Positions 6,250 through 63,612 of a DNA stretch of 64,000 bases are shown here, piece by piece. The DNA is taken from the IMG/VR virus record IMGVR_UViG_3300048854_000232, positions 96,618 to 160,617 of that record; one strand, written 5' to 3'. A program made the translations under genes and the position numbers. The notes below the pieces were generated by a model. It was not told the origin of the DNA. It ran no database searches and saw nothing but the letters and a program-made list of their open reading frames with translations. Origin of the DNA: a virus. The number at the start of each line of letters is the position of its first letter. Position 1 is the first letter of the stretch.

Positions 6250-6807
6250 ATGTGGTATCTGTATTGGTACTGGCTACACCTGAGGGCGTTTTGGTTGTGG
6301 GGAGAGGATGAACGTGTGATGGGTCGGGTGGAATTCACCGACTATCGCTACGAGTACCATCAGGCGGTGGGAAAGGAGGAGCATGAAACGCCGGTGGATT
6401 GGCGGGACATCTTCAGCATGCGGCAGCTACACGACGACCTGTTTTACAACATCCTCCACAGCGAGCTGAACCTCCACGACAATGCCCTGAAGACCCTGTT
6501 GGGTAAGGGCACGTTCGTCCTACGGGTGTTCCGCGAGCAGACCCACCGCTACCCCATCGTTGCGGTTTACCGCCCTGTGCCGCCCTTGACCAAGCCCATC
6601 ACGGGCAAGCGGGCGCCTTGGGGTAACCTCAACATGCAGGCGCAGGAGTTCTTCTACGCCTACAAGAAGGGCATCATTTACCACCTGACCAGTAAACCCC
6701 AGATCCTGTTCGACTGGTTCGAAGAACCGGTGATGGTGTTGCACATGCCCGAGCTGGCCCAGCAGATCTCCCGGCCCACCGAGCCCAGCATCATCACCTT
6801 CGCATAA
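6250..6807 (+). CDS. Hypothetical protein
   Basis: GAGG RBS, typical codons. Confidence 0.75.
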   Translation: MWYLYWYWLHLRAFWLWGEDERVMGRVEFTDYRYEYHQAVGKEEHETPVDWRDIFSMRQLHDDLFYNILHSELNLHDNALKTLLGKGTFVLRVFREQTHRYPIVAVYRPVPPLTKPITGKRAPWGNLNMQAQEFFYAYKKGIIYHLTSKPQILFDWFEEPVMVLHMPELAQQISRPTEPSIITFA

Positions 6808-6834
6808 GTCTCCATTCTCCACAGAGGTAAACCC

Positions 6835-7824
6835 ATGCAGCACGAAGGCACCATTCAGCAACAAGGCAACCTGCGCATCTACGGCTGCGGCGGCTGTGGC
6901 ATCAACATCGCCTCGACCTTCGATCTGTCCCCGGTCAGTCCGGAAGAGGGTCATGCGGTAGCGCACCCAGTCTACATCGACACCAGCCGCTCCAACCTGA
7001 AGACCTCGATGACGGCCGAGTACTTCGCGGTCCTCGAAGGCATCGATGGTTCGGGCAAGATCCGTCGTGAAAACCACGAGGCGATCGGCAAGTCGGTGAA
7101 GAACATCCTCCAGACGCACAAGCCGATGGACTTCAACATCGTGGTGTTCTCCGCCTCCGGTGGGTCGGGTTCGGTGTTCGGTCCGCTGATCATCTCCGAG
7201 CTCCTGGGTCGTGGTCTGCCGGTCGTGGCCATCGTCATCGGCTCGGACGAATCGGCGATCACCGCCGAGAACACGCTGAAGACCCTGAAGTCGCTGGAAG
7301 CGGTGGCCGAGCGGGCTCAGTTGCCGGTCGTGATCCACTACGACCACAACGACCGCGACGTCAAGCGTTCGGCCGTCGACGCTGATGCCAAGCGGGCGAT
7401 CTCCTCCCTGGCTACGCTGGCCTCCCGCCAGAACGCTGAGCTGGATTCGCGCGACATCGCCAACTGGGTGCAGTTCTCCCGGACCACCTCGGTGCGTCCG
7501 CGTCTGGCCTTGCTGGCGGTGTACCGGGATAACGAATCCCTGGCCGATATCTCCCACCCGGTCAGCATCGCCTCGCTCTACAACAGCCCGGACGATCCGA
7601 AGGTCGACAAGGTCCCGGACTACTCCTGCGACGGCTACCCGATCTACCCCTCCCAGCACTTCAAGGTGGAGCACTTCGTCATCACCATCGACGGCGTGCA
7701 GGTGATCGTGGGCAAGCTCAACGCCAAGGTCAGCGAGAACGACACGCTCCGCTCCTCGCGCATCGATCACAATTCGATCGTGAGCGACAAGGACAAGGTC
7801 ACCGAAGACGGCCTGGTCCTGTAA
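6835..7824 (+). CDS. phuZ: Phage tubulin PhuZ
   Basis: G-C-G-G-C-G-I-N-I loop, GSGKIR, tubulin signature SASGGSGS, ELDSRD T7 loop, and the acidic PhuZ-type C-terminal tail EDGLVL. Confidence 0.96.
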   Translation: MQHEGTIQQQGNLRIYGCGGCGINIASTFDLSPVSPEEGHAVAHPVYIDTSRSNLKTSMTAEYFAVLEGIDGSGKIRRENHEAIGKSVKNILQTHKPMDFNIVVFSASGGSGSVFGPLIISELLGRGLPVVAIVIGSDESAITAENTLKTLKSLEAVAERAQLPVVIHYDHNDRDVKRSAVDADAKRAISSLATLASRQNAELDSRDIANWVQFSRTTSVRPRLALLAVYRDNESLADISHPVSIASLYNSPDDPKVDKVPDYSCDGYPIYPSQHFKVEHFVITIDGVQVIVGKLNAKVSENDTLRSSRIDHNSIVSDKDKVTEDGLVL

Positions 7825-7834
7825 CAGTTCGTTG

Positions 7835-7890
7835 CCTCCACCCCACGGATTCCCGGTGACGGGGTCCGTGGGGCATGGAGGGTGTTTTTT
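7835..7890 (+). terminator. Intrinsic terminator after phuZ
   Basis: Long GC stem (CCCCACGGAT/GTCCGTGGGG) followed by T6. Confidence 0.75.
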
Positions 7891-8366
7891 ACGTTGGGGT
7901 GTCACCGACTACCGGCGTGGGAGATTTTTTACATACGGGTGCCCATGATATAGTCACTGGCGCTAAGTCCTCCCGCCTCGGGGTTCACCGGGCTCTTAAA
8001 AGGACTTCCGCTTCGTGGCTCAACCCAAACAACGGATTCGTATCCGTTAGCCCAGATGGGCACCCCGGTCCATCATCTTCGTGGTGTTGGACCCTTATTC
8101 CTGAGCGAGAAACGTACCATGCAAATGAAAATGAACCTTCTCGCTTACTGCATCGGCCAGGCCCTGTACGGGCACCTCCGACGTTAACCATGTTGTGTCC
8201 ACTGTAAAACTCCGCAGGACCGGTCGAAGAACTTACCTCGACCGCTTCCGCAATTAGAGAGCGCGCCTCACGGTGCTGCCCTTGGGTGTAGGAGTGCTGG
8301 ATCCTCTCTGGCTCGCGCCGCCATCCGCGAACAAGACGAGGTTGTGGACGGCCCCTTGTAGAACGT
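7891..8366 (+). ncRNA. Candidate large structured non-coding RNA (~480 nt)
   Basis: No credible ORF. Nested long-range stems 7891-7910/8340-8366, 7913-7921/8312-8320 and 7937-7946/8056-8065, plus at least 6 local hairpins. Most G-U pairs favour the + strand. Confidence 0.6.
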
Positions 8367-8369
8367 AAG

Positions 8370-8402
8370 CGCCCCAGGCCAAAAGCCTGGGGCCTTATGC
8401 CG
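8370..8402 (+). terminator. Hairpin followed by TTATGCCG
   Basis: GCCCCAGGC/GCCTGGGGC stem, then CTTATGCCG. Confidence 0.65.
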
Positions 8403-8458
8403 CCATGGGCTTTCTTTACCTCCCTGCCTTTTGCTATGACCTACCGCGAGGATCCCTC

Positions 8459-8662
8459 ATGCAGTTCTTTGTCTGCGCCTACTGCGATCACATCGATGCG
8501 GTGGAGCTGTGCCCCCATAACGCAACGATTCCGTCCCACGGCGATTGGATGTGCACCTGCTGCGCCGATAAGCCCTGGCACAACCACTTTGCCTACCGGC
8601 CCTATGACGTCGACATCGACTTCATGGTGGTCAATCGCCCCACCGGCTTAGGATTCGGCTAA
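8459..8662 (+). CDS. Small Cys/His-rich (Zn-binding) protein
   Basis: GAGG RBS; CAYC…CTCC…WH. Confidence 0.7.
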   Translation: MQFFVCAYCDHIDAVELCPHNATIPSHGDWMCTCCADKPWHNHFAYRPYDVDIDFMVVNRPTGLGFG

Positions 8663-9153
8663 TGACCCGCCTTGTCGTGCCCTTCCCTCACGACTTCTTC
8701 AACCCGGGCGAGCTGTACAACATGCAGTTCCTGGCCATTCCGCCGGAATGGATGATCGAACTCTCCCTGGCGTTATGGAAGCCAGTGTTTGTCGATAACG
8801 ATCACCCGGGTAAGTATGAAGTCGTGGTGCAGGAGATCCACGAGCTCTATGTCGGAGATAACGTGGTCCGTGCCGAGTACCTGCGGGAATGGTCGGACTA
8901 CTATGTGGACATCATCGACAGGCTGATGAACCACTTCCGGGTTTACTTGGGGCACATGCCTGCTGAGCAAACCCAACGGGAGCTGGACACGGTGGTGGTG
9001 GATAACTTCCTTCCTGGGGCGATCGTGTTACGGCTGGTCTTTGTGGGTGAGGACCACATCAGCTGTTCCACCGCCTGGGTGACCTACCCCAGAGCCTTCA
9101 CGGACGAGGCCCCGACACCTCGGTATGCCCATCACTGGTTGCTGAACCGATAA
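8662..9153 (+). CDS. Hypothetical protein, paralog-array member 1
   Basis: TAATG coupling; N-terminal RLVVP, C-terminal DNFLPGAIVL. Confidence 0.75.
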   Translation: MTRLVVPFPHDFFNPGELYNMQFLAIPPEWMIELSLALWKPVFVDNDHPGKYEVVVQEIHELYVGDNVVRAEYLREWSDYYVDIIDRLMNHFRVYLGHMPAEQTQRELDTVVVDNFLPGAIVLRLVFVGEDHISCSTAWVTYPRAFTDEAPTPRYAHHWLLNR

Positions 9154-9193
9154 CCCTCCGGACCTACCCGGGTCTGGAGGGGGTCTATGCCGT
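9153..9193 (+). terminator. Hairpin followed by CTATGCCG
   Basis: CCCTCCGGACC/GGTCTGGAGGG stem. Confidence 0.6.
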
Positions 9194-9387
9194 AGACCGC
9201 GTAGGAAGCTCTCCAGAAAACACCGAGTAAAACCCTACACCTAGCCCGAATCTATAGGGGAAGTTGCCTGTATCGATTCCTACGAGCTTTCAGCAAGCCC
9301 CTGGGGTGGTAGAGTGAATTCGATCTTAAAAAATCTGACATACTAACTATCCCTATACGGCTGACCGTACGAAGAAGGTATCTCGAC

Positions 9388-9771
9388 ATGTATCGTGCGC
9401 TGTACATTTACGATATTGCCGACCTGCACCTTCAACTGAAGGCGCTGGCCGAAGAGTTGCGGGAATACCATCCGGAACTGAAGAAGGTTTCGGCGTCCCA
9501 GCTGGCGTTACGATGGATTCGGCACCACCTGATCCGGGATCACTTCCTGGTCTTGCTGACTGATCCGGTCGATCTGCTGGTCGATGCCTCGCTCCACAAC
9601 GAATTTCTTATCGCCTACCCGAATCTGTCGAACCGGTTCTACCGGCAAGTCAACGGGTGTCCGCATCGCTATCCCGAAGATCCATGTTTGTTGCGTGTCA
9701 CGGACCGAACCATGGTCTTGGACTACCGCGCGGATCCACTCGACTACAGCGTCTACGCGGCGCAGAGGTAA
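9388..9771 (+). CDS. Hypothetical protein, probable paralog-array member 2
   Basis: AAGG RBS; weak match to the array motifs. Confidence 0.7.
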   Translation: MYRALYIYDIADLHLQLKALAEELREYHPELKKVSASQLALRWIRHHLIRDHFLVLLTDPVDLLVDASLHNEFLIAYPNLSNRFYRQVNGCPHRYPEDPCLLRVTDRTMVLDYRADPLDYSVYAAQR

Positions 9772-9773
9772 TC

Positions 9774-10265
9774 ATGACGGCTTACATCCTCCCCACCAAA
9801 GACGCAGCGCTGAGGTTGCACGACAGCTGCCAGATGGTGGCGGCACGCCGTTCCAATCCCATCGTTACCCATGTCCCGGATCAACAGACCTGTCGGGCCA
9901 TGGTCGCTGACTTCATGGACGTGCTGGTCAATGCCCAGCTTCTGTGGTTGCGTCGGACGGACACCGCCCTGGACGACATCGTGGGTAAGTACTTTCCGCT
10001 GTACGTGGAAATGGAACGGGCCATGGTCCAATCAGGCTACTCACGGCAACGGGCCCAGGAATTCGCCCGGGACTTCTACGACTACGTGATCGATCCGGTG
10101 TTCGAGCAGCTCCAGCAGCTGGTCCACGTGATCATTCCCGAACGTACCTGGGACATTTGGCTGACCAAGCCCCTGGGCGCGGACATCATCTTGGAGAAGG
10201 GCCCCGATTATCGCATCGCGGACTGGACCCGACGCAAAGAGCGTGGAGAATTCCGCGATGAGTAG
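9774..10265 (+). CDS. Hypothetical protein, paralog-array member 3
   Basis: GAGG RBS; MTAYILPTK…PLGADIILE. Confidence 0.8.
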   Translation: MTAYILPTKDAALRLHDSCQMVAARRSNPIVTHVPDQQTCRAMVADFMDVLVNAQLLWLRRTDTALDDIVGKYFPLYVEMERAMVQSGYSRQRAQEFARDFYDYVIDPVFEQLQQLVHVIIPERTWDIWLTKPLGADIILEKGPDYRIADWTRRKERGEFRDE

Positions 10266-20990: not shown

Positions 20991-22223
20991 ATGGCCCTTC
21001 ATCTGGAAATCGTCGACTTCGACGAGATGTATCACACCTCCAGCATTGCCCCGACGCTACTCAATGCGTTCAACATCGATTCGGAAGAGGATAAGGAGCG
21101 GCTGAACAAGCAGATCTACACCTCCTACGAAGGCGATTCGCTGGAAGTGCTACCCTCGTGCGAATGCGGCAATCTTCGTGGTGAGTATAACGTCGACATC
21201 CCGTGTCCGATCTGCAATACCCAAGTCATGTCCGTGACCGAGCGGCCTCTGGAAGCCACCTTGTGGATGGCTCCGCCCAAAGGGGTTCTTCGGTTCATCA
21301 ATCCCCAGGTGTGGGCGATCCTGTCCAACGCCTTGACCTACGCCGGTTCGGATCTGCTGGAGTATCTGGTCAACCCCAGTTACCAGCTGCCGCCCAACCA
21401 GCCCAAGGCCGCCAAGAAGCTCCTCACGCTGGATCTGGAGCGGGGGATCAATTACTTCTACACCCATTTCGATCACGTGATGGGCATGCTGTTCCAGAAC
21501 GGCATCATCAACGGAACCCGTCAGGCGCGTGATAACCTGAAGACGTTCCTGAGCATCTACCGTGACCGACTGTTCTGTCAGTGGATGCCGATTCCGTCCA
21601 AGCTGGGTTTCATCACCGAGCAGACCGTCACCGGCACCTACGCCGATCCGACGATCAAGGACGCGATCGATGCCATCCGTACGATCTCGGCCACGGAAAA
21701 CGCCGTGCTGCCGTTGTCGTTGCGGACCCGTCAGTCCCGTGCGATGAAAGCCAACGCGCTGCTGTCCAACTACCACCAGCAATTCGTCGCGGTGTCGTTG
21801 GGCGGTAAGTTCGGCTGGTTCCGTAAGCACGTGTTCGGTTCCCGTTCGCACTTCACCATGCGTGCGGTGATTACCTCGTTGTCGGAGAACCATGACCGTC
21901 GCGAGTGTCACCTGCCGTGGTCGGTGTCGGTGATGGCCTACAAGGTCCATCTGACCAGCAAGTTGATCAAGCGCGGCTTCACACCGGGCGAGGCTAACAA
22001 GCTGCTCAACGAGAACACCCGGAAGTACCACCCGCTGCTGGATGAGTTGTTCCAGGAACTGATTGCCGAGTGCCTGCACATGGGCTTGCCGATCATCTTG
22101 CAACGTAACCCGTCGCTGCAGCGTGGTTCGGCGCAGTTGTTCTACGTGACGAAAATCAAGACCGATCCGAACATCAACACGATCAGCATGTCCACGCTGA
22201 CCCTCAAAGCACCCAACGCGGAT
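20991..22223 (+). CDS. Non-virion RNAP beta' N-terminal subunit (phiKZ gp55-like), exon 1
   Basis: Zn finger CECG…CPIC; RKHVFGSR, RAVI and QRNPSL motifs; ends at …APNAD. Confidence 0.92.
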
Positions 22224-22644
22224 GAACTTCAGTCCCGTCCATCAGTAATGGTGGAATGAAAATTTCCCTAATTGCTGGGAAGTCTCTTGACCCCTACCGC
22301 CACAACGTAACTCGAAAGAGTAGACGTGACCACCAGGCGTAAAAAGCGTAGTAAACTCCCTTAGGACCAATGCGGGTCCTTTGTGAGCGGAGACAATCAG
22401 CAGCCAAGCATCTTAGGTCGCCTCTCAGCGACGATGATGAAGGTTCAACGACTAGCCGTAAGGCGTAGATTCCAAAGTGGAATCGAAATGGGAAAGAGCC
22501 ATCGGAGAAATGCCTACATGCCCCGAGCGTGTAGTTCGATGGTCCAAGATATAGTCTGGTCTCTACGGTGACGTAGAGGAGTGGTGGGTTTCTCCCCTGT
22601 AACCCATACACCGGTTAGGTTAACGCCCTAACTGAACACATACG
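22224..22644 (+). mobile_element. Group I self-splicing intron, 421 nt, no homing endonuclease ORF
   Basis: The 5' exon ends in U and the intron ends in G. Core elements P (AATTGCTGGGAAG), Q (AATCAGCAGCC), R (GTTCAACGACTA) and S (AAGATATAGTCT) occur in order. Removal restores NADFDGD in frame. Confidence 0.93.
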
Positions 22645-62253: not shown

Positions 62254-63612
62254 ATGAGTCTGACAGTCGTAGCCGCCGGGGCCGCGAGCGCGCTCGCAGT
62301 GGCCAAACCTGCACTGCAGTTTGTGATGTCCCTCGCAAGCCGCGTGTTCCGCAATACCAAAGCCGATTCGCTGATTCGGTTCACCAAAGCCACCCGCGTC
62401 GAACCGATCGTCATGATCGATCAGCGCATTGCGCACCTGCCGTACACGCATGACGTGATGCAGGCGCTGTCCTCGATCTTTATCGGCTATTACCTGCAGG
62501 CCATCGCGCTGGCTGTGAACGTCGGCAAGATCAATGTGATCAAGCTGCTGGACACCCTCAACCCCACCCGTGACGTCGTCGACGCGGCGGCAGCCAAGAT
62601 CGTCGACGTGATCAACACGCCGTCGATGAATTCGTTCGAGTCTTATGAGCACTCCCTGCCCCGTCCGGGCCAGGTGATCAGCCTGGAAGCCCAGGTCTTC
62701 AATCCGAAGCCGCAGCAGCACGACAATGCGTTCGGTCCGAAGCCTGCGACCAAGGCCGACATCGGCAAGGTCATGGCTCAGGGCGGCAACGTCGGTGCCA
62801 CGCTCGGTAACTCGGTCAAGCACGGTCAGCTGGGTAGCCAGATCAATTCGAACATGGGCGGCGGCCTCGACCAGAGCAAGCTGATCCACCTGAATCCGGA
62901 TGTCTCGGAGATCAACCAGGGCGTGTCGCAGAAGAACGACCTGTTCGCCAAGGACACGATCAAGTCGCTGGGCGAGGCGGTCAACCTCTCGGTCGGCAAG
63001 CTGATCGAAGTCAACGTGTCCGAAGGTGACCACTCCGCGACGTTCCCGATCTCGGTCCGACTGATCGCCACGATCGTCGGCTCCAATATCCTGGCTCATA
63101 TTCTTGGCGACGGCTCACGTGACACCAGCGCGAAGGAGCGTTATCACTCCTGGCGTGCGGGTCAGCTGGAGTTCTGGCGCGACCTGGTCCTGTGTCAGGA
63201 TCTGATCGACGAGCACAAGAAGACGCTGGCCCTGGACACCACCGGTACCTACGATGCGATCCTGAAGCGCCGCAGTGGCAACATGGCAGCGGCGACCCTC
63301 ACGGGCGCTCCGTCGGTGGCTACCGCTTCGAACCTGCTGGTCCTGTCCAAGCAGACCGCCCGGGAACTCGAGCTGTCGATTCGCGGCAAGCTGTCGGACT
63401 ACCACACCCGTGAAAAGGTGCTGAAGTCCACGTACATCATGCTGATGGTGGTGATCGATGCCGAGTGGGAACAGGTGACGATCTATCACCGTGGCATTTC
63501 TCTGCCGACCCAGCTGTCGATCAAGGAAATGAAAACCGCGAACAAGGGCACCGGTCCGGACGTGGGTGAAATCCTGAAGGCGTACCAATTGGGCATGAAC
63601 CCGACCATCTAA
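62254..63612 (+). CDS. Inner head protein (phiKZ gp89-like)
   Basis: TRVEPIVMID, NLSVGKL and DLVLCQDLI motifs; internal SFE/SLE cleavage-type sites. Confidence 0.75.
   Translation: MSLTVVAAGAASALAVAKPALQFVMSLASRVFRNTKADSLIRFTKATRVEPIVMIDQRIAHLPYTHDVMQALSSIFIGYYLQAIALAVNVGKINVIKLLDTLNPTRDVVDAAAAKIVDVINTPSMNSFESYEHSLPRPGQVISLEAQVFNPKPQQHDNAFGPKPATKADIGKVMAQGGNVGATLGNSVKHGQLGSQINSNMGGGLDQSKLIHLNPDVSEINQGVSQKNDLFAKDTIKSLGEAVNLSVGKLIEVNVSEGDHSATFPISVRLIATIVGSNILAHILGDGSRDTSAKERYHSWRAGQLEFWRDLVLCQDLIDEHKKTLALDTTGTYDAILKRRSGNMAAATLTGAPSVATASNLLVLSKQTARELELSIRGKLSDYHTREKVLKSTYIMLMVVIDAEWEQVTIYHRGISLPTQLSIKEMKTANKGTGPDVGEILKAYQLGMNPTI

Follow-up and report, generated by a model that had tools for sequence, protein, structure and literature searches.

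A candidate structured non-coding RNA behind the phuZ gene of a chimallivirus

The phuZ locus and its gap

The DNA analysed, hereafter the window, is a 64,000-nt stretch of a 294,599-nt virus record, and the sequencing runs that contain its DNA are soil metagenomes; one of them, X1, may be where this DNA comes from and does not count as independent. It encodes a PhuZ tubulin (PHROG tubulin PhuZ, E 5e-95), a nuclear shell protein (PHROG, E 4e-92) and a DNA polymerase of the phiKZ-like phages, which together indicate a nucleus-forming chimallivirus; carrying both the nuclear shell and PhuZ, the phage is a member of the Chimalliviridae. The nearest named PhuZ proteins are those of the Xanthomonas phages RTH11 and LucasX (48%), and the two closest relatives of all are the Logan proteins P0002 and P0003, which are 71% and 68% identical. 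The features considered here are listed below, X3 being the single relative with which the region could be compared and X4 a sequencing run.

6835-7824, + strand: phuZ tubulin gene, 329 aa
7835-7889, + strand: strong hairpin with U-tract, likely phuZ terminator
7880-7914, + strand: 35-nt block absent from X3 (X3 joint 7879-7915; direct repeat D2)
7937-8065, + strand: domain 1, a predicted three-way junction closed by GGGUGCCCAU/AUGGGCACCC
8067-8147, + strand: two predicted hairpins, 8067-8093 and 8102-8147, with variable loops
8119-8187, + strand: 22-codon ORF inside the element
8148-8361, + strand: domain 2, predicted multibranch, little changed in X3
8202-8352, unstranded: identical 151-nt contig of soil metatranscriptome run X4, depth 5.6
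8364-8403, + strand: hairpin followed by TATGCCG, likely terminator
8459-8662, + strand: CxxC...CxxC-WH zinc-finger-like ORF, about 67 aa
18813-20825: nuclear shell protein gene

The phuZ gene ends with its stop at 7824, and no credible gene follows until the zinc-finger-like ORF, which starts at 8459. The intervening gap (7825-8458), which had been described as devoid of a credible ORF, is real, its ORFs either scoring as non-coding or being frameshifted in X3. A 110-aa ORF at 7875-8207 scored -36.6 on the phage codon model, is frameshifted in X3 and yielded no match in a homologue search. The best-scoring ORF of the gap, at 8119-8187, has a coding score no better than that of shuffles (P 0.12-0.15) and a weak Shine-Dalgarno (SD) sequence that is buried in a hairpin. 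It is open in X3, where the listed changes comprise three non-synonymous (Q to H, M to L, L to I) and no synonymous ones, and it is probably untranslated.

The stated absence of tRNA and tmRNA hallmarks was borne out by ARAGORN, which returned 0 genes in the 64-kb window, and no Rfam family, including RNase P, tmRNA, riboswitches and small ribozymes, reached its gathering score in the gap; the best sub-threshold match, over 7837-7932, had an E-value of 1.2 and 19 bits against a gathering score of 105. Several look-alikes were discarded: a tmRNA tag reading 'ANENE' at 8121 is mutated in X3, as is an anti-SD motif at 8174-80, which was also rejected by inspection against known motifs, and the same kind of inspection ruled out a Csr-type GGA-loop sponge as well as sequences resembling RNase P and the hammerhead.

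The zinc-finger-like ORF adjoins phuZ in most of the relatives that possess it. A regular expression matched it in 44 of 144 other phuZ loci, which form a redundant set, and in 40 of these 44 it begins at most 140 nt from the phuZ stop, so that the approximately 570 extra bases found here represent a lineage-specific insert. This ORF is linked to phuZ in many chimalliviruses, belongs to no PHROG family and is unannotated in RTH11.

No sigma-70 promoter was found within 6500-10000, nor does the element have an upstream match to the phage's recurrent TTTCAAA or ATTCTATG motifs. Elsewhere in the genome, the upstream motif TTTCAAAC-C-TATA(G/A)(T/C)AC is the likely early promoter of the phage (examples at 43534 in the window and at 73991, 94735 and 111603 counted from its start), and the recurrent upstream motif ATTCTATG is its likely late promoter. 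The genome also holds three Rfam-confirmed group I introns, one at 22214-22578 of the window and two at about 62570-62900 and 66415-66720 of G000:C1.

Fold, conservation and transcription of the element

X3 is a contig of 1,081 nt which covers 7692-7879 and 7915-8807 and skips 7880-7914. The first-pass annotation had proposed a closed structure of about 480 nt at 7891-8366, bounded by two terminator-like hairpins and with ends that pair with each other. Both flanking hairpins exist, one at 7835-7881 with a U-tract and the other at 8364-8399. The helices of the upstream one have pair probabilities of 0.96-1.0, and the X3 contig covers it to 7879; the downstream one belongs to a class that recurs in the intergenic DNA of the genome, and its loop and base are altered in X3. 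In phiKZ, a conserved terminator motif is given at 61 sites in the portions of PMC10914365 used here.

The closed ends were not sustained. The outer helix (7891-95/8362-66) has a pair probability of 0.33-0.46 and the second one (7913-21/8312-20) of 0.03-0.31, and X3 lacks 7880-7914 and is altered at 8363, 8366 and 8367. The aligned part of X3 does include 7915-21, which make up 7 of the 9 bases in the 5' strand of the second helix. The missing block contains the proposed 5' closing strand and one of the two copies of TTTTTTAC. The whole structure model as first drawn lies 4.7 kcal/mol above the optimum. The element was redrawn as 7937-8362 plus the terminator at 8364-8403, replacing 7891-8366.

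The inner helices fared better, since pair probabilities of 0.93-0.99 were obtained for the 7937/8056 helix and for five of the six that had been named:

7937-46/8056-65: GGGTGCCCAT/ATGGGCACCC, P 0.93-0.98 in three of four folds
7965-71/8001-07: AAGTCCT/AGGACTT
8031-48: hairpin AACGGAT-TCGT-ATCCGTT
8067-72/8088-93: GGTCCA/TGGACC
8102-11/8138-47: TGAGCGAGAA/TTCTCGCTTA
8221-27/8238-44: CGGTCGA/TCGACCG

In the remaining fold, that of 7934-8410, a pairing with 8404-10 (P 0.51) outcompetes the 7937/8056 helix. The sixth named helix, AGAGAG/CTCTCT (8256-61/8304-09), is present in the letters but has a pair probability of 0.28 when 7891-8366 is folded and of 0.007 when 7934-8366 is folded. The loop that had been read as CUUCG is a UUCGU pentaloop rather than a cUUCGg tetraloop, and is mutated in X3. 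A loop at 7982-86 is complementary to another at 8229-33, so that tertiary contacts are possible, and domain 2 has alternative folds within 2-4 kcal/mol.

Compared with shuffled sequence, the whole length folds with z-scores that are unremarkable for this genome. For the region as first delimited (7891-8366) the z-score is -2.17 on the + strand, where 3 of 100 shuffles were as good, and -2.57 on the - strand, whereas 7934-8366 reached -2.98, with 0 of 100 shuffles as good. When the element and 35 genome windows of its length were scored under a shared scheme, 5 of the windows attained the z-score of the element (-2.64), so that the whole-length value alone is not decisive; the ensemble diversity of the element (37) is below that of all 35 windows (minimum 40). 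The signal is concentrated in the 5' half (7937-8147), which includes no terminator and has a z-score of -5.0 (0/100 shuffles), with -4.2 for domain 1 (0/100 shuffles) and -4.2 for the two hairpins that follow it. The 3' half (8148-8361) folds like its shuffles (z -0.7, 26/100). A separate observation calls for caution on z-scores: in phiKZ, the 578-nt gap between PHIKZ042 and PHIKZ043 (L166:11763-12342), unannotated in RefSeq, has a z-score of -2.56 over 531 nt and by eye looks like an uncalled protein gene.

Over 7915-8420, X3 differs at 28 letters, 24 of which are listed individually, and by four single-base indels. Within 7937-8362 there are 19 listed substitutions, that is, 19-23 of 426 nt differ (4.5-5.4%). 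For phuZ, the divergence measured over two phuZ contigs is 69/648 (10.6%; Fisher P 0.0025 against the element in the worst case), and all flanks together diverge by 9.4%, again more than the element (P 0.007). In phuZ, 8 of the 11 listed changes in 7709-7788 fall at third positions. Since the element is non-coding and yet diverges at half the rate of phuZ, its bases are likely to be under selection.

The placement of the changes points in the same direction. Eight of the 19 listed substitutions are at unpaired positions and 11 at paired ones, and of the latter seven keep the pair and four break it. On the + strand, seven pair-keeping changes compare with 4.0 expected under random placement (P 0.03-0.04), whereas the minus strand has two against 2.9 expected and no excess; the four pair-breaking changes compare with 6.4-6.8 expected at random (P 0.10-0.14). 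Five of the kept pairs reflect one-sided G-U swaps (8011, 8103, 8111, 8243 and 8274), and the other two changes form a single compensatory pair, 8224/8241, from U-A to G-C, which is thus counted twice among the seven. The breaks are at 8006 and 8007 in domain 1, at 8072 in a terminal pair and at 8190 in a weak helix. Domain 1 has three listed substitutions (8006, 8007 and 8011) and two 1-nt indels, and the breaks at 8006-07, which face a deletion at 7964, could be compensated by unlisted letters. This covariation signal comes from one relative only; it is modest and suggests RNA pairing on the + strand, this strand being favoured because the changes are G-U-tolerant.

With respect to transcription, run X4, which was found with words from 6800-9200, contributes the 151-nt contig at 8202-8352, the only RNA-run contig over 6000-10000. 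Being one read length long and unstranded, it gives a weak hint only, and the absence of RNA cover elsewhere proves nothing about transcription. A transcript start at G7937 is suggested by the parallel with the regions behind phuZ in L035/L037 and in the phage RAY, where TATG precedes the 5' strand of a helix; the element has TACG where the tail RNAs of these relatives have TATG before the 5' G that opens the closing helix. TATG is presumably the late promoter in these phages.

Homologue searches and the regions behind other phuZ genes

Homologues of the element had been expected after phuZ in related chimalliviruses, but apart from X3 none was found by BLAST, nhmmer, motif scans or covariance models; the relatives have either the zinc-finger-like ORF close behind phuZ or folded tails without detectable similarity to the element. 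No homologue was obtained by blastn against phage and plasmid records and the phage's own genome, by blastn and nhmmer over 165 loci, or by nhmmer over 265 loci plus the genome, and three gapped motif scans of IMG/VR returned 62 loci, all of them chance matches. The covariance models R1/R2 found no homologue in 91 of 161 other phuZ loci, nor in 8 and 9 loci with filters off, and over 50 whole records they gave two weak matches in RP12 (E 0.12 and 0.32) and nothing in phiKZ; these models derive from a single sequence, present in the window and identically in the copy L005, and consequently have low sensitivity. Pairwise alignment against 19 other tail regions gave a best z of 2.2, and two more regions were likewise without similarity.

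At 80% identity the PhuZ loci form 67 clades, or 68 with L334. Folded tails, with a z-score of -3.1 or lower and at most 1.5 kb behind phuZ, occur in at least 9 of the 68 (L024/L025/L034, L035/L037, L048/L051, L013/L015/L096, L014, L019, L088, L094 and L334), a count which is not a blind test, since the regions were picked by eye and simple terminators also give very low z-scores; some of the regions include terminators or small ORFs. The tails of L038 (+0.3) and L110 (+0.8) are not folded, and that of L073 is borderline (-1.7, -3.0). Several of these tails (L035/L037; L024/L025/L034; L014/L019/L088/L094) resemble the element in occupying the same site, in their length (290-600 nt), in having no Rfam family and in ending at a terminator hairpin. 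They differ from it in sequence and structure, with no detectable similarity, and many of them start at TAT(T/A)(G/A)TATG, a motif that is absent from the element.

Some of these regions merit description in their own right. Immediately behind phuZ, L035:4017-4525 and L037:4000-4545 appear to encode an RNA of about 510 nt that folds into a closed structure and begins at TATAGTATG. Comparison of these two phages gave 14 two-sided changes among 103 predicted pairs, and neither an Rfam match nor another homologue turned up. In L024 (3949-4535), L025, L026 and L034 (3946-4555), PhuZ is at least 80% alike, and the tails, of 290-600 nt, are strongly divergent, share a 3' module and seem to contain small ORFs. 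Non-coding units of about 60-150 nt, beginning at TATG, follow phuZ in L061/L062 (Erwinia phage RAY-like, 3975-4050), L064 and L068, the RAY-like unit having complementary ends.

Explanations for the element

Taken together, the sequence comparisons indicate that a real, selected RNA structure is probably present on the + strand at 7937-8362. Of the original proposal of a novel large phage non-coding RNA, a selected non-coding structure on the + strand is supported by the conservation in X3 and the placement of its changes, while the boundaries and closing helices are not; its ribozyme option found no support in Rfam or in a profile of the introns of the genome. The chances are about even that the element is an independent non-coding RNA which works in trans via protein binding, a function arrived at by elimination, since the analysis turned up neither a ribozyme motif nor an antisense target, a repeat array or a credible ORF. 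It is likely to constitute a new orphan phage RNA family, no catalogued family matching it.

Several other explanations were weighed. It is unlikely that the element is a folded mRNA for the 22-aa peptide of 8119-8187, in which the 8102-8147 hairpin would control translation, and thus both coding and structured: the ORF is open in X3 with mild changes and is the best-scoring one in the gap, and small ORFs occur in other folded phuZ tails (L013/L015, L024/L034, L048), but its coding score does not exceed that of shuffles, its SD is weak, all three listed changes are non-synonymous whereas in phuZ 8 of 11 fall at third positions, and it accounts for just 69 of about 430 conserved bases. A cis-acting leader of the riboswitch or attenuator kind for the zinc-finger and paralog operon, in which domain 2 would be the sensor and 8364-8403 a conditional terminator, is quite unlikely. 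Such a role would suit the position of domain 2 beside the terminator, its closely spaced alternative folds and the complementarity of 8299-8306 to the zinc-finger SD region (8448-55), and phiKZ is described, in the part of PMC10914365 consulted, as yielding many short 5'UTR-derived RNAs by premature termination. However, the hairpin at 8364-8403 is typical of a class found throughout the genome, the would-be switching bases 8363-67 are altered in X3, the SD complementarity is mostly a 6-nt palindrome, and the zinc-finger-like ORF does without such a leader in 40 of 44 other loci. A non-functional spacer or decayed insert, whose folding reflects chance and terminators, would agree with the genome windows that match the whole-length z-score, with the failure to find a homologue past one close relative and with a covariation P of about 0.04; it is very improbable given a divergence half that of phuZ in non-coding DNA and the z-score of the terminator-free 5' half.

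The length of the element and its location beside the spindle gene would also suit a DNA-level element or a replication-primer RNA, such as an origin of the ColE1 RNA II type or a centromere-like site. This has very little probability: no iteron array was found, gene orientation explains why the GC-skew slope changes near 100 kb, the coding strand having a negative third-position skew everywhere, and the G-U-tolerant, strand-specific changes indicate pairing of RNA and not of DNA. The least probable explanation, to be entertained with great reserve, is a group I intron core in derived or circularly permuted form, for instance a trans-acting ribozyme remnant. As in group I introns (RF00028), an exact 9-mer of the S element and an R-like 10-mer stand in the right order and spacing; the S element GATATAGTC occurs four times in the genome, in the three Rfam-confirmed introns and at 7947, the R-like TCACCGACTA (7902-11) lies 45 nt upstream of it, and pairings resembling P3 (7917-23/8245-51) and P4 (8255-61/8304-10) can be traced by eye. 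However, the R-like motif is deleted in X3 and its pattern has nine matches in the genome, three of them in introns, and an S/R pairing is opposed by the predicted pairing of 7952-57 to 8015-20 (P 0.94). Moreover, a motif scan found no P or Q motif, there is no P8 helix or interrupted gene, the G-binding-site rule fails by inspection, a profile HMM of the three introns misses the element at E 20, and Rfam has no match at E 10.

Under the preferred explanation, a protein-binding non-coding RNA acting in trans, 7937-8362 would be a phage non-coding RNA gene read from the + strand, with a transcript that would start near G7937 and end at the 8364-8403 hairpin. In the fold predicted for this transcript, a stable 5' part is followed by a 3' domain of higher conservation, possibly with tertiary contacts, and the folded product would bind protein in trans as a decoy or scaffold. 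Folded RNAs recur at this site among chimalliviruses, and the element is probably accessory cargo there.

At best, by analogy, the element would work in the manner of GOLLD and ROOL, two ornate orphan RNAs of phages. As far as 10.1101/2024.12.08.627333 was drawn upon, GOLLD, ROOL and OLE are described there as large ornate non-coding RNAs with poorly understood functions, the first two being carried by phages and prophages. The element resembles the three as a large, multi-helix, orphan candidate non-coding RNA, but it is smaller, at about 430 nt against the 659 nt (ROOL) and more than 800 nt (many GOLLD) cited in those portions of 10.1101/2024.12.08.627333, and matches no Rfam family. GOLLD and ROOL lie near tRNA islands, whereas the window has 0 tRNA genes; they are known for abundance, pseudoknots and cages or RNA-only multimers, whereas the element is known here from sequence data and a predicted fold. 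The phiKZ non-coding RNAs 5'UTR-p40 and 3'UTR-PHIKZ298 are likewise structured and bounded by terminator hairpins, in the passages of 10.1101/2020.12.06.403469 and PMC10914365 that concern them, which give them about 100-200 nt and two stem-loops, less than the element. In phiKZ itself, only a 54-nt gap follows phuZ, and the models of the element match nothing.

A wider hypothesis, which is rather unlikely, holds that the end of the phuZ operon is an exchangeable 'RNA slot' in which unrelated large folded RNAs are swapped from clade to clade and share a late-infection role. If so, these RNAs might be decoys for host RNA-sensing defence proteins or RNA parts of the nucleus or spindle machinery, and the element would count as one of these plug-ins and as a new RNA class. 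Taken by itself, the element carries limited weight, because its distribution is narrow (one relative) and nothing hints at its function; together with the recurrent folded RNAs at the site, it suggests an unexplored layer of chimallivirus RNA genes working with or across the phage nucleus. Large structured phage RNAs are poorly understood in general, and the phiKZ non-coding RNAs receive one sentence in the covered part of a 2026 jumbo-phage review (PMC13282480). The literature passages surveyed contain no account of the element or of phuZ-tail RNAs, and a term search of the text of a genomic-language-model preprint (10.64898/2026.10.21.760802) returned neither PhuZ nor chimallivirus; related motifs may be listed in the supplementary tables of that preprint or in those of PMC10690425, which cover 10,006 viral candidate RNAs.

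A distinct group of long, covarying stems with an AG/AA internal loop was also noted at L014:4488-4553, L019:3465-3543, L088:4566-4654, L094:4573-4657 and L101:3974-4052, at RTH11 OQ790161.1:99051-99130 (L336) and G019:163752-163829 (L339), and more weakly at L008:4327-4385. A model of this group (R3) had no match in the window or in the genome of this phage (G000), and the motif is absent from the + strand of the element. Among L014, L019, L088 and L094, 13 of 21 pairs are changed on both sides. These stems sit inside ORF-poor regions of 400-600 nt without an Rfam match, and this RNA group of chimalliviruses is apparently undescribed. In some phages the group follows phuZ and the zinc-finger-like ORF; in the cultured phage RTH11 it lies within an unannotated gap of 850 nt, and in G019 behind a tRNA cluster.
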